The notes under the pieces are model-generated. The model was not told the origin of the DNA. It did not search any database and saw only the letters and a list, made by a program, of their open reading frames with translations. Of a DNA stretch of 64,000 nt, positions 1,201 to 7,423 are shown in pieces. Source of the DNA: Mustelus asterias (lineage: Eukaryota); contig NC_135805.1 of assembly GCF_964213995.1 (NCBI RefSeq), forward strand, positions 106,950,001-107,014,000, given 5' to 3'. Both the position numbers and the translations under genes were made by a program. Numbering within the stretch: the stretch's first letter is position 1; every line of letters starts with the position of its first letter.

Positions 1201-2446
1201 AAGTTGTGTGAAAACAGTTTAATCAGAGATATCAGTACAACGCAAACAAAAAGAGATGAATAGTTTCAGAAGAAATGAACATTTGTTTTCTGTGACGCCA
1301 CACAAGAAATACAACCCCATCCCTAACACTTCCTCTAATCTCGCCCGTGTTACTGACTATTTCAAGTATTTTAATTCTTCCTAATATATGATTCGAAATG
1401 ACCTGTCGTTAATTTAAGTTTACATTTCTGACAATATTTTCCTGGATTAATTTGGAGTTCTTATTCAGAAAGGCTTCCTGTTTCTGATGACAGAAGATAA
1501 TGAGGATGAAGCAGAGGGAAAAGGCCTGACATTCACGGGAAAGCGGCACTGGAGGGAGGGAAGGTTGGAAACTCATCCCGTCAGCCTGAGAAAAGAGGCT
1601 ACGTCTTAATGTGAATGCCTTGCAATGAAGAAAAAACGAAACATATCAAAGCTCTAACATTCTGACAGAATACGGATGGAGAAGACTGTTGCCACACACC
1701 TTGGCAACCCTTATGAGGCCATTAAACCTCTTCCCACACTGTTTGGCACTGATTGCCTTTGCAATTTCCTTCCATAACATCTGTGGCCTCTTTTCATAGA
1801 ACTTATGCTGCTCTCAGTCCCCAAGGAGCCATTCCCTTACTTGTCCTTGTTTCTTCAAATAAAACAGCTACTGACACACCTGTCGTTTGGTTGTCTTTCT
1901 TTTAGCAATAAGGTGGGAGGCAGTGATCAGGAAGGGGTTGGAAGCCAAGGCGGTGGAAGGAGGGGTGTGTGGATTTTGACACGGTTGCAATTACTGACTG
2001 ACAGTCGCCCATGGTTTTAAGTCAAGTAATTTTCAGTTAAGTAATTATCTTTACAAGATTTAACGTTTTGGTAATGGCTGCAGCCGTCCCTTTAAGGAGC
2101 AGTAAAGCTGCCGAGAAGAAACTGAATGTCCTCTGCAAAACCGCCACCAGCGGTGGGAGCACTGAAAGGAAGGAATAGATCTGTCTATGAAAAGTTACAG
2201 CAGCTGGTGTTATTGTCACACCTCAAGGAATATCTCGAAACATTACCAATGTCACAAAAATGTTGCTAACCATTGACAACAGGAAATAAGAGTCCTGAAA
2301 ACATTTGTATAAATACGCTTATCCCATTCATTCCACTGAACATTTTATGTACATCGATGAGGTGACCTTTAATCTGCCTTCATTCTAGAGGTTCTGTAAT
2401 CTTTCGTCATGTAACTACCGTCCCCTTCACCCTCCCTGTTAGCCTG

Positions 2447-2742
2447 TGATGCACGATATAACTCACGAGGCTAGAGGTACTCGGGGAAATAAAGGCTTTT
2501 ATTGACTACAACAATAGAGCTACCATATATAATACACGATCCCAGACTGAAGGGTCCCAGACAGAGCAGTGACCTTTATACCTCTCCCAGGAGGCGGAGC
2601 CCAACTGGGATGTACCATAAGAACTATATTACAGGTAGAACAGCCCAACCCTAACACCAACAGTAACATATATACAGACTCATAGTACTGGCCAGACCCT
2701 GGCTCAGCACTACCTGGTGGGAACCAACAATGGTTCACCACA
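2447..2742 (-). repeat. 3' LTR of the Gypsy element
   Basis: Near-identical to 6857-7152; minus strand reads TGTGGTGAACC...GCATCA. Confidence 0.97.
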
Positions 2743-2756
2743 TTCACCCCTCCTTT
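2743..2756 (-). promoter_or_regulatory. Polypurine tract (plus-strand primer)
   Basis: Minus strand AAAGGAGGGGTGAA directly precedes the TG start of the 3' LTR. Confidence 0.9.
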
Positions 2757-2805
2757 GAAAACAAAGGCCGGCGGGGTACAAAACACAGAACAATTGTTCA
2801 TCAGT

Positions 2806-5800
2806 CTATAGGTTCAGAGGGTCTGGGGGACCGCACCGTCGTTGTGACCTCCTCAACACCGGCGATGACACTGGTGTAGGCACTCGTGGTGGCGTTCTCC
2901 CCAAGGCGGTGTCCAACGGCTCCTCCAATGTCTCACGGGCCGGTAGACACCGAGGTGGTGACAATCCGCGAAACTCGGACACGCCTTGAAGTGGCGACCA
3001 TCTCCTGGACTCAGGCAAGCTGTACACGGGAGTAAAAGGGTTAAGTGATGGACCCGATGCTGCCCGCGCCGTGTCAGGAGGGGAAACAATAGTTGGGGGG
3101 TCTCTAACAGGAGGTATGGGAGCGACAGGGGTTTCCAAGCCCCCTGCTGGCGCCAGGTCTCGAATCGAGACCGTGCCCTCTCGCCCGTCAGGATATGCCA
3201 CATAGGCATATTGAGGGTTGGCGTGGAGGAGATGGACCTGTTCAACCAAAGGGTCGGACTTGCGGGTCCTAACATGTCGCCGCAGGAGGACAGGTCCTGA
3301 GTACGTCAACCAAGACGGTAATGAGGTCCCAGAGGAAGACTTCCGAGGGAATGAAAACAGTCTCTCATGGGGAGTAGCATTGGTTGCCGTACACAGGAGT
3401 GAGCGTATGGAGTGGAGCGCATCAGGGAGCACCTCTTGCCAACGGGAGACTGGAAGGCCTTTAGACTTCAACGCCAGTAAGACAGCCTTCCAGACTGTAG
3501 CATTCTCACGTTCAACCTGTCCGTTACCCCTAGGGTTGTAGCTCGTGGTTCTACTAGAGGCAATTCCGTATGAGAGCAGGAATTGCCTCAAGTCATCGCT
3601 CATGAACGACGAGCCCCTATCGCTATGGATATAACAGGGGTACCCGAACAGGGTGAAAAGATCACGAAATGCCTTGATAACCGTGGCAGCGGTCATATCG
3701 GAACAAGGAATGACAAAGGGGAATCGTGAGTACTCATCAACCACATTGAGGAAGTACACGTTCCGATCTATCGAGGGAAGGGGGTCCTTAAAATCTACAC
3801 TCAGTCTTTCGAATGGACAAGTGGCCTTAACGGGTTGTGCCCTGTCAGGTCGGTAGAAGTGCGGTTTGCATTCCGCGCATCCCCGGCAGCTTCTGGTTAT
3901 AGACCTGACATCCTCCACCGAGTAGGGTAGATTCCGGGCTTTTATGAAATGGAAGAGCCGAGTGACCCCCGGATGGCAGAGGTCATTGTGGAGAGCCTGC
4001 AATCGATTCTCCTGCATACTAACGCATGTTCCACGCGACAGGGCATCCGAGGGCTCGTTGAGTTTCCCTGGACGATACATGATGTCGTAATTATAGGTGG
4101 AGAGTTCGATTCTCCACCTCAAGATCTTATCGTTCTTGATCTTGCCCCGTAACGTGTTATTGAACATGAACGCCACGGACCGCTGGTCCGTGAGCAGGGT
4201 GAACCGTTTTCCCGCCAAGTAATGGCGCCAATGCCGGACGGCCTCCACAATGGCCTGGGCCTCCTTTTCCACCGCCGAATGTCAAATTTCGGGGCCTTGG
4301 AGAGTGCGAGAGAAAAAGGCGACGGGCCTGCCCGCCTGGTTAAGTGTGGCGGCCAGGGCGAAATCAGATGCATCGCTCTCCACCTGGAAGGGGATGGACT
4401 CATCGATAGCGTGCATCGTGGCTTTCGCGATGTCGGCTTTTAGTTTTTCAAAGGCCAAACGAGCCTCTGGTGCTAGGGGAAAAGAGGTAGACTTGATGAG
4501 CGGACGGGCTTTGTCCGCGTAATTGGGAACCCACTGTGTGTAGTAAGAGAAGAAGCCTAAGCATCTTCTCAGTGCTTTTGCACTAGTGGGCAGGGGAAGT
4601 TCGAGGAGGGGACGCATACAGTCTGGATCAGGGCCAATGACCCCGTTTTCCACCACGTATCCGAGGATAGCTAGGCGGCGCGTGCGAAATACACACTTCT
4701 CCCTGTTGTACGTCAGATTCAGGCGAGATGCAGTGTGTAGGAATCTAAGAAGGTTGGCATCGTGGTCCTGCTGGTCATGGCTGCAGATGATGACGTTATC
4801 CAGGTACGGGAAGGTAGCCCGCAGTCCGTTATGGTCCACCATTCGGTCCATAGCACGCTGGAAGACCGAGACCCCTTTCGTGACACCAAAAGGAACCCTT
4901 AGAAAATGGTACAAGCGACCATCCGCCTCAAAAGCCGTGTATTGTCGGTCCTCTGGGCGAATGGGGAGCTGGTGGTAAGCAGACTTTAGGTCGATGGTGG
5001 AGAACATCCGGTATTGCACAATCTGGTTGACCATGTCAGATATGCGCGGTAGGGGATACGCATCCAGCTGCGTGTATCTGTTAATGGTCTGACTATAGTC
5101 TATGACCATCCGGGGTTTGTTCCCACTCTTGACCACCACGACCTGCGCTCTCCAAGGACTAGCGCTAGGTTGTATGATCCCTTCCTTGAGGAGCCGCTGA
5201 ACCTCAGATCGAATGAAGATCCGATCCTCAGCGCTGTAACGCCTGCTCTTAGTCGCGATGGGCTTGCAGCCTGGCACGAGCTTCTGGAATAAAGAGGGTG
5301 TGGTAATCTTAAGCGTCGAGAGGCTACAGGTGGAGCGCGTTGGGCAATTTAGAGGCTGCGAGTCTCCCACTGAAAGCGGAGGGAGTGGCCCACCATACTG
5401 TAGGGTTACGCTCTTCAAGTGGACCATGAGATTTAGTCCTAGGAGAATTGGCGCGCAAAGGTGCAGTAACACCAGGAGCTTGAAGCTCTCGTAAACCGTG
5501 CCCTGCACTGTCAGATTTACCACGCAACTCCCTAGCACGGTGACAGACCGGGACCTTGACGCCATCAAAATTGTCTGCTTGACAGGCTGAATCCGGAGGC
5601 CACACCGCTTCACGGCGTCTGGGTGAATGAAGCTCTCCGTGCTCCCGCTGTCAAACAGACAATAAATCGTGCATTTGTTTTCCTGTATGTCCATCATGGA
5701 CTTGTCGAGTCTGTGAGGCTTTGCCTGGTCCAGGATGATCGACGCCACCGTTGGTTCGTGGGCGCCACTGCAGGCAGCTGAGATGGATGATGATGACCCC

Positions 5801-6033
5801 TGCTGGTCATTCGCGGTCGGTGCCGACCAAAATGGCTGCCCCCATAGGTCGCACGTGGGCGATGGCGCCAAAACCAGCAGCCCATGGTCGTCGCGCGTCT
5901 CTTGTGACTCCGTCGTCTGGAATGGCGACGTCCTGGCCTCGCACGTGGAAGAAGCCCTTGACGATGCCGACGACGAGGAAACCGGCTCCGGGGAGTCACA
6001 CGCCGCACTGCTGTTCCTGGATGGAAGTTTGGA
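2806..6033 (-). pseudogene. pol: Gypsy pol (protease, RT, RNase H, integrase); one in-frame TGA at 4282-4284
   Basis: PR: CLFDSGSTESFI. RT: SPWRAQVVVV, IDLKSAYHQ, PFG, YLDN. RH: VESDASDFA, EKE, LTDQRS, SDALSR. IN: HNDLCH..CRGCAEC, VDFK, HSDRG, NGQVER. ORFs 4282-5871 and 2806-4272 are in the same frame, reading GPEI-TGA-HSAVEKE. Confidence 0.95.
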
Positions 6034-6801
6034 TCAGCATACCTTTGAATAATGCCCCTTCTTGCCGCAGGCGGAGCACAACACCGCTTTAGTGGGACAT
6101 CGCTGCCGAGGGTGCTTCACTCCCCCACAGAAGTAACACCACGGGCTGCCTGGAGCTGCTGCCGTCGTCAGGCCCGAGGGTGGGAACGCAATCACGCAGT
6201 TTTTCGGTCCCGCTGAATGAAGTGGGGTCTGTGACTGCCCCTGCCACGTTGTCTCCACGTGGTCGTCGGGGTACATCGCCAGACTTTTGGAGGCCGTTTC
6301 TAGCGCATCCGCTAGCTCTATGGACTTAGTGAGATCGAGATTACCTTGCTCCAACAGCCGAAGGCGGATGTAAGACGAGCCGATTCCCGCCACAAATGCA
6401 TCTCGAGCGAGGTCGTTCATGTTCTGGTCTGCCGACACTGCTTTGCAGTTACAGCCCCTGGCTAGCTGTAGGAGCTCGCACGCGTACTTTTCCATCGTTT
6501 CGCCGGGCTGCCGCCGTCGAGTGGCTAAGAGATATCGAGCATGCATCTCGTTCGGCGGTTTAATGTAGCACTTCTTCAGAAGCTCGAGGGCCCCTTTGTA
6601 GTCGGTGGCCCCACGGATCACTAAATATGCAGCGTCGCTCACCCTCGCGTGGAGGCCCCGGAGTCTGTCGGCGTCGGTGGTGACCGCTGCGGAGGCTTCG
6701 AGGTAATCCTGAAAGCATTTCAACCAGTGGTCGAAGGTGTTCGAGGCGCCCGCCGCACGTGGGTCCAACGTAAGCCGTTCGGGTTTAAGCATTTGCTCCA
6801 T
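6034..6801 (-). CDS. gag: Gypsy Gag with two C-terminal CCHC zinc knuckles, in frame with pol across a TGA
   Basis: 255-aa ORF with RRRQPGETMEKY, ARDAFVAGI, CYFCGGVKHPRQRC and CSACGKKGHYSKVC. 6033-5871=162, so pol continues in the same frame. Confidence 0.93.
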   Translation of the reverse strand: MEQMLKPERLTLDPRAAGASNTFDHWLKCFQDYLEASAAVTTDADRLRGLHARVSDAAYLVIRGATDYKGALELLKKCYIKPPNEMHARYLLATRRRQPGETMEKYACELLQLARGCNCKAVSADQNMNDLARDAFVAGIGSSYIRLRLLEQGNLDLTKSIELADALETASKSLAMYPDDHVETTWQGQSQTPLHSAGPKNCVIAFPPSGLTTAAAPGSPWCYFCGGVKHPRQRCPTKAVLCSACGKKGHYSKVC

Positions 6802-6840
6802 GTTCTCTGTGTCGTTTTTTTTTCAACGAAGAGAGTTCAA

Positions 6841-6855
6841 TTGTAGTCAATAAAA
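6841..6855 (-). promoter_or_regulatory. PBS-position sequence complementary to the element's own LTR (6907-6921); not a tRNA PBS
   Basis: Minus strand TTTTATTGACTACAA lies 1 nt after the 5' LTR end, lacks the TGG of tRNA-3'-end PBSs, and is the perfect reverse complement of LTR TTGTAGTCAATAAAA. Confidence 0.8.
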
Positions 6856-6856
6856 T

Positions 6857-7152
6857 TGATGCGCGATATAACTCACGAGGCTAGAGGTACTCGGGGAAAT
6901 AAAGGCTTTTATTGACTACAACAATAGAGCTACCATATATAATACACGATCCCAGACTAAAGGGTCCCAGACAGAGCAGTGACCTTTATACCTCTCCCAG
7001 GAGGCGGAGCCCCACTGGGATGTACCATAAGAACTATATTACAGGTAGAACAGCCCAACTCTAACCCCAACAGTAACATATACACAGACTCATAGTACTG
7101 GCCAGACCCTGGCTCAGCACTACCTGGTGGGAACCAACAATGGTTCACCACA
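6857..7152 (-). repeat. 5' LTR with TATA box (6985-6990), Inr-like site (~6958) and AATAAA (6908-6913)
   Basis: Minus strand GGTATAAAGG, then T(T/C)AGTC about 30 nt downstream, then GTCAATAAAAG. Confidence 0.95.
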
Positions 7153-7162
7153 GCCTGCACAG

Positions 7163-7423
7163 TCTGGCACAGTAGTTAGCATTGCTGCCTCATAGCGCCT
7201 GACACCTGGGTTCGATTCCCGGCTTGGGTCACTGTCGGTGTGGAGTTTGCACGTTCTCCCCATATCTTCATGGGGGTGCTCTGGTTTTCTCCCACAGTCT
7301 GAAAGCTATGCAGGTTAGGTGCATTGACCTGAACAGGTGGCAGAGAGTAGCAACTACAGGAATTTCACAGTAACTTCATTGCCGTGTTAATGTAAGCCTT
7401 ACTTGTGACTAATAAATTAACTT
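7163..7423 (+). mobile_element. V-SINE, alternative-tail (type B) subfamily
   Basis: HE1-like head and core followed by tail CACAGTAACTTCATTGCCGTGTTAATGTAAGCCTTACTTGTGACTAATAAA. Confidence 0.85.

Follow-up and report, generated by a model that had tools for sequence, protein, structure and literature searches.

Probable self-primed reverse transcription in an animal Gypsy lineage whose putative primer carries the poly(A) signal

We analysed a window of 64,000 nucleotides from the shark Mustelus asterias (NC_135805.1, positions 106,950,001 to 107,014,000) and found that it holds a member of a Gypsy lineage that very likely primes reverse transcription with its own RNA. Two observations carry this conclusion: lineage-wide covariation between a segment of the LTR (the arm) and the putative primer-binding site (PBS), and fold-back insertions that pivot at this site. 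A first-pass annotation of the same DNA had proposed either self-priming or occlusion of the 5' poly(A) signal. Covariation and fold-backs strongly support the former, with an internal arm, while occlusion as the sole role of the helix has become unlikely.

The element is an LTR retrotransposon of 4.7 kb on the minus strand (2447-7152 of the window; table 1). Its two LTRs are identical at 290 of 296 positions, and two in-frame stops (6034-6036 and 4282-4284) interrupt its gag-pol frame. The element shows the features of Ty3/Gypsy (Metaviridae), i.e. LTRs of the form TG...CA, a polypurine tract (PPT), a target duplication and the order PR-RT-RH-IN, and the best relative of its RT among solved structures is that of Ty3 (E = 9e-38). 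A Pfam scan found no chromodomain in it, in agreement with the first-pass annotation. The U3 contains a 35-nt unit (7040-7080 in the window), present in one to several copies, which differ between elements and between the halves of fold-back insertions. A short interspersed repeat lies beside the 5' LTR at 7165-7400 and has an inverted relative at 714-780.

Table 1. Features of the retrotransposon, in coordinates of the window.
Feature	Position	Strand	Remarks
3' LTR	2447..2742	-	second arm copy at 2497-2511, no PBS behind
Polypurine tract	2743..2756	-	ends GAA, then 3' LTR
gag-pol, single frame	2806..6801	-	two CCHC knuckles, PR-RT-RH-IN
RT catalytic motif YLDN	4795..4806	-	Asn in place of second Asp
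PBS (putative)	6841..6855	-	exact arm complement; no TGG; fold-back insertions pivot there
Loop	6856..6906	-	51 nt: GCC after arm, remaining R/U5, LTR-end CA, one-base spacer
Arm	6907..6921	-	15-nt LTR segment ending AATAAAA; likely self-primer, from sequence
Predicted leader	6922..6958	-	37 nt, 5' of arm; placed by TATA/initiator spacing
Leader motif	6924..6930	-	predicted pairing with gag start codon region 6801-6795
Initiator-like TTAGTC	6955..6960	-	predicted transcription start 6958
TATA box (predicted)	6985..6990	-	from sequence; spacing kept in 6/6 shark families examined
5' LTR	6857..7152	-	296 nt, TG...CA; direct repeat of 2447-2742
Target site duplication	7153..7157 and 2442-2446		5 bp

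On the minus strand, the 5' LTR closes with GCATCA at 6857. It is followed by a single A (6856) and then by a 15-mer (TTGTAGTCAATAAAA on the plus strand, 6841-6855), and TGG is absent. This 15-mer is the exact reverse complement of LTR positions 6907-6921, from which it is separated by 51 nt, and the arm includes the poly(A) signal AATAAA (6913-6908). Over 20,000 shuffles of the LTR in two-letter blocks, anchored complements averaged 3.1 nt and never exceeded 9 nt, whereas the real one has 15. The RNA fold has a z-score of -2.76, and none of 200 shuffles was as stable. Sequence and shuffles thus uphold the earlier description of a perfect 15-nt complementarity with a 51-nt loop, AATAAA in the arm and no TGG; the claimed gap of one nucleotide between the helix and the LTR/U5 edge is the single A.

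We searched the M. asterias genome (G000) with the window DNA and with Gag proteins (59-100% identity, one of 42%); proteins that NCBI labels as M. asterias match this genome at 100%. This yielded 160 loci, from which we scored 152 copies in five families, leaving out four duplicates and four loci without a recognisable arm or junction. The spacer A follows the CA in all 152 copies (with an anchor tolerating two substitutions). Counting from the 3' terminus of the arm, each of positions 1-13 of the arm:PBS helix is a Watson-Crick pair in 141 to 151 of the 152 copies. Pairing then ends sharply: position 14 is paired in 138 copies, position 15 in 123 and position 16 in 5. Compensatory change, which had been named earlier as a check of the proposal, preserves the complementarity lineage-wide. 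We identified 14 distinct fully compensated haplotypes across the five shark families, several of them inside families of about 95% protein identity. Four further ones were found later, so that this single host holds 18 PBS variants, every one of which matches the LTR of its own element. No G-U pair is fixed at positions 1-13; G-U occurs as scattered single-copy states, accounting for 11 of the 48 unpaired-or-wobble cells. For 20 haplotypes that were hand-picked, and so biased to intact helices, 259 of 260 cells are paired, with 51 changed on both sides and none on one side (G-U), while slid controls pair at 34-50%. Such strict Watson-Crick change without wobble intermediates would be expected if the primer is copied into the PBS as template. 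In one copy (L167), the arm is tandemly duplicated in the 5' LTR.

The same geometry (arm, GC, loop, CA, one base, PBS) is kept in eight distant families, whose RT is about 52-70% identical where measured. Among 56 metagenome loci, those with an intact 5' junction form at least five families that share it, with a perfect helix of 10-16 bp in three and one mismatch in L129 and L146; some copies are decayed (e.g. L110, L144). Three of five loci in MAG contigs add three families, with helices of 13-14 bp and loops of 39-51 nt, and the other two have no junction. No relative of the lineage was present in the viral contigs searched, nor in a first MAG scan. Across families, the loop measures 39-54 nt, and 10 of the 12 representatives have GC right behind the arm (it is missing in L356 and in one F3 copy). 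The 3' end of the arm carries AATAAA or ATTAAA in all families except L122 (ATCAAA), where the non-canonical ATCAAAA is matched by compensation in the PBS. The five MAG loci (L355-L359), filed under bacteria, are either animal-type retrotransposons of the lineage or host DNA; two of them, L355 and L356, each a contig made up of one element with terminal repeats, are likely contaminants. By label, protein relatives come from corals, anemones, a damselfly, an ant, a prawn, a nematode, sharks and rays; the distant helices were seen in metagenome and MAG contigs. The precomputed domains of 120 listed relatives (P0028-P0147) include no chromodomain, and 99 of these relatives have the RT motif Y[LMI]DN. 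Those with YxDD are scattered among the YxDN ones in a quick, poorly resolved RT tree of lineage members and one outgroup. A literature search returned no paper linking YLDN with a retrotransposon.

A second line of evidence comes from aberrant insertions. A search for the pattern 'LTR end, then complement of arm and leader' retrieved 13 fold-back insertions (L217-L229) in the shark genome, in three families (11, 1 and 1), whereas the reversed-pattern controls gave no match. In the first family, this is 11 fold-backs against 383 normal junctions, about 3 per 100. All 13 have the same structure: an LTR, one A, and an inverted copy that runs from the 3' terminus of the arm through leader and U3 to the first base of the LTR. 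None ends at the predicted start site. Target duplications of 5 bp, each different, flank 11 of the 12 fold-backs with both ends; the exception is L222, and L221 has lost its left end. Two additional fold-backs, L410 and L417, have lost the left stem. The two halves differ at family-polymorphic sites in L222, L223 and L226, in the number of U3 repeats in L223, L224 and L229, and at a family-polymorphic leader site in L222 and L225. The differences in L222, L223, L224 and L226 point to two templates. The fold-backs are best explained, and most simply, by plus-strand strong-stop DNA (U3-R-U5-A-PBS) whose 3' end annealed to a second molecule's arm. On such mispaired DNA, run-off synthesis would yield two exact U3 ends for integrase. 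This origin would require minus-strand synthesis to have started at the 15-mer from a primer with the sequence of the arm. In line with such an intermediate, about half of Tf1 cDNA retains a single-stranded copy of the PBS at its 3' end, according to the available part of PMC11042837. Fold-backs are a genomic read-out of a reverse-transcription intermediate, which can be searched for in any genome without experiments.

The position of the arm in the transcript depends on the start site. The start at 6958 given in the first-pass annotation is a fair prediction from sequence, as the spacing of TATA box and initiator recurs in all six shark families examined: an initiator-like A lies at +33/+34 from the TATA box and 51-53 nt before the 3' end of the arm. 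This constant spacing predicts an internal arm, lying 36-38 nt into the transcript. The putative duplex between leader and gag AUG, with G-U allowed, is better than for shuffled leaders (p < 0.05) in 5 of 12 families, among them four of the five shark families; it is not supported in the other seven, in two of which (L129 and L357) the script had set the anchor wrongly. The LTR of L356 has only about 59 nt ahead of the arm.

How would an internal arm become a primer? We lean towards a cut in the 5' copy of R that frees the arm. The 5' end of the RNA would fold so that the arm pairs with the PBS; the complementarity is seen and the folding predicted. The RNA would then be cut at or beside AAUAAAA|GCC, probably by the RNase H of the element as in Tf1, so that a 3'-OH would lie within one or two bases of U5. 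The end of the primer is uncertain by one base: PPTs finish in AA ahead of TG, and with a symmetrical two-base end its position would move. Strong-stop DNA would cover the 51-nt loop and presumably jump to the roughly 10-30 nt of R between the signal and the poly(A) site. The primer, with its 5' tail of 37 nt, would probably need trimming. Plus-strand strong-stop DNA would end in a copy of the arm and rewrite the PBS each cycle, which would explain the strict Watson-Crick covariation; mispairing of this copy with the arm of another molecule would give fold-back insertions with two U3 ends. We favour the 5' cut because of the proximity of arm and PBS and because of the precedent of Tf1, whose RNase H cuts between bases 11 and 12 to produce an 11-nt primer (as described in the accessible text of PMC7175516).

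A less likely, though serious, possibility is that the primer is the 3' copy of R, or a short LTR transcript acting in trans. The arm near the 3' end of the RNA would pair with the PBS, its tail would be cut or trimmed, and strong-stop DNA would reach the cap. The first jump would be a snap-back onto the primer's own leader, with RNase H then trimming it back to about 15 nt. This route would give the jump 52 nt of R and yield a 15-nt primer naturally, and it agrees with the continuation of all 13 fold-backs through U3. On the other hand, the 5' arm lies 51 nt from the PBS and, by the predicted fold, should pair first. Direct read-through of a 3' primer should also produce fold-backs with a long overhang on one side, instead of the two exact U3 ends that they have, and the leader-site difference between the halves of L222 and L225 argues weakly in the same direction.

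The two routes make different predictions: crossovers and truncations should lie at AAAA|GCC if the 5' copy is cut, and at the start site if the 3' copy primes. Among 153 distinct copies of 160 loci, in linkage between two subfamilies, r2 is 0.73-0.82 between arm and loop and 0.48 between the arm and a site just before the predicted start, a comparison confounded by nested ancestry. Linkage thus does not favour a crossover at the 3' end of the arm; if anything, with the same confounding, the tighter link of the arm to the loop than to U3 leans to 3'-copy priming. Truncation junctions show no clear excess at the arm end over the start site, the arm start or mid-loop. Patterns for the arm end gave 7, 8, 0 and 8 matches, about eight of them non-collinear junctions and two (L405 and L414) LINE insertions; controls gave 3 + 1 matches at the start site, 2 at the TATA box and 3 + 8 in mid-loop (about six junctions). 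In two more controls, other subfamilies overwhelmed the signal (212 and 92 matches, with 30 loci fetched for each and 6 and 5 examined). Junctions at the predicted start in L398, L401, L455, L465 and L481 are as the 3'-copy route would have it. None of three pattern matches for a 2-LTR circle was such a junction. Two of the start-site loci, L398 (G000:C442:71271-74300) and L401, are rearranged solo LTRs; in L398, the arm is separated from the loop by the PBS and internal leader, and the locus has a 5-bp duplication. Isolated or mis-joined pieces running from the GCC after the arm to the CA of the LTR occur in L396, L411, L413, L416 and L418, and are not clearly commoner than control-site junctions.

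The classical geometry of Tf1, in which the packaged RNA starts at the arm and its first 13-16 nt serve as primer, appears improbable. It would account for the sharp end of pairing at 13-16 bp and for the short U3 of L356, and alternative start sites exist in Tf2 (available part of PMC5341516). However, TATA box and initiator place the start 36-38 nt upstream in all six shark families, no TATA box lies at the right distance from the arm, and a leader motif is predicted to pair with the gag AUG.

We also give little credence to a helix that only hides the 5' poly(A) signal while another, unseen primer starts synthesis. The signal at the 3' end of the arm in all families but L122, and a partner strand present at the 5' LTR alone, would suit such a function. 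Yet there is no other primer site, L122 compensates a non-canonical signal, and fold-backs pivoting at the PBS would go unexplained. In a purely structural helix, fixed G-U pairs should also be tolerated, as in the leader:AUG duplex, and none is fixed at positions 1-13. Occlusion is nevertheless plausible as a second role of the self-priming helix, which would hide the signal in the 5' LTR only.

Annealing of a host tRNA fragment or small RNA to the 15-mer is very improbable: half-tRNA priming does occur in some copia lineages (available text of PMC6317226), but one host contains 18 PBS sequences that each match their own LTR, TGG is absent, the longest match in a partial set of 26 tRNA genes with seven anticodon labels is 6 nt, and an Rfam search, the other half of the check suggested earlier, gave no match near the gathering score. 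At G000:C16 97.2-98.7 Mb (L363-L392), genes for tRNA-Lys(TTT) and tRNA-Thr stand in tandem arrays that repeat about every 1.8 kb. It is just as hard to credit that quasi-palindrome correction or replication fold-back made the inverted repeat and the fold-backs at the DNA level, with no role in reverse transcription: inverted repeats do provoke deletions, and L220, L410 and L417 have lost part of one stem, but fold-backs stop exactly at the LTR start where a DNA fold-back would copy flanking DNA, their target duplications contradict such an origin, their halves differ at inherited sites, and the register is fixed across phyla.

As far as the accessible literature goes, self-priming had until now been shown only in the fission-yeast element Tf1; for chromoviruses and one group of plant copia elements it was a prediction. 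That literature consists of parts of PMC3601003, PMC5006619, PMC6934838, PMC6317226, PMC8556966, PMC6238403, PMC2582038, PMC4558846, PMC11042837, PMC4600332, PMC7175516, PMC5341516, PMC2864245, PMC11673190 and PMC2148107. In these parts, self-priming is described only for Tf1/sushi, Tcn1 and TAR copia elements; Repbase Reports, subscription journals and supplements may mention the present lineage. Our results very likely add an abundant animal lineage, of another geometry, to the self-primed elements. They bear on the frequency with which LTR elements gave up tRNA primers and on whether RNase H can free an internal primer. In practice, LTR annotation based on the PBS overlooks such elements.

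Several known groups resemble the lineage in part. The window element has traits of the Mag lineage (A, B and C clades) of Ty3/Gypsy: two adjacent CCHC knuckles, a short element, a 5-bp duplication and no chromodomain. Mag elements are tRNA-primed and have a YxDD RT. Kinship with Mag, proposed in the first-pass annotation ('Mag-like'), is possible. In HIV-1, the polyA hairpin hides the 5' poly(A) signal, and the U5:AUG duplex pairs the leader with the gag start codon. The HIV-1 helix lies within R and the primer is a tRNA, whereas the partner strand in the window element is the PBS, found only after the 5' LTR. Three other clades do not accommodate the element, as far as the available parts of their descriptions allow. 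CsRn1 elements have a CHCC Gag motif, a tRNA-Trp PBS and a 4-bp duplication (PMC2582038), while the window element has CCHC, no TGG and a 5-bp duplication. Integrase precedes RT in Gmr1 (PMC2582038), unlike the PR-RT-RH-IN order found here. Kuafuorterviruses (Troyka) have an IADD, VADD or LADD motif (PMC11673190) where the window RT has YLDN. One locus, L349, is a decayed Gypsy with a YIDD RT about 32% identical and apparently integrase before RT, as in Gmr1. In the RT of Ty1, the change D211N at the second Asp of YXDD kept polymerase activity in vitro, though 223-fold slower, and abolished transposition unless RNase H suppressors were present (partial text of PMC2148107). The present lineage, in which YxDN is the usual natural state, is abundant and seems to tolerate the Asn that cripples Ty1.

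A PBS complementary to the LTR has likewise been predicted from sequence in the chromovirus Tcn1 and in the TAR copia elements Houba and Osr-1. They belong to another clade or superfamily, and the accessible part of that report (PMC6317226) mentions neither overlap with the poly(A) signal nor fold-backs. The closest parallel is with Tf1/Tf2 of S. pombe, Tj1 and the Tf1/sushi chromoviruses, which also lack a tRNA site and have a PBS complementary to their own R and the Ty3/Gypsy domain order. They differ in the chromodomain (and SH3/GPY-F module) after integrase, which the window lineage lacks; a search for chromoviruses in the host genome gave one partial RT from 15 stretches. Moreover, Tf1 takes its primer from the very 5' end of the transcript, while the arm, of 13-16 nt, is predicted 36-38 nt inside it, ends on the poly(A) signal and goes with an RT that is mostly YxDN, in hosts that by protein labels are cnidarians, arthropods, a nematode, sharks and rays. 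The earlier label 'non-Tf1' therefore suits the lineage, given the lack of a chromodomain, and the predicted geometry, but not the chemistry, which is probably Tf1-like. Taken as a whole, the evidence tips slightly towards a broader reading. Independently of other elements, a large non-chromoviral animal Gypsy lineage with a YxDN RT may have come to prime without tRNA, from the segment of R that bears the poly(A) signal and that would lie either some 37 nt into the transcript or at its 3' end. One helix would then both silence 5' polyadenylation and start reverse transcription, and self-complementary plus-strand intermediates would integrate as two-U3 fold-backs at about 3% of normal junctions.
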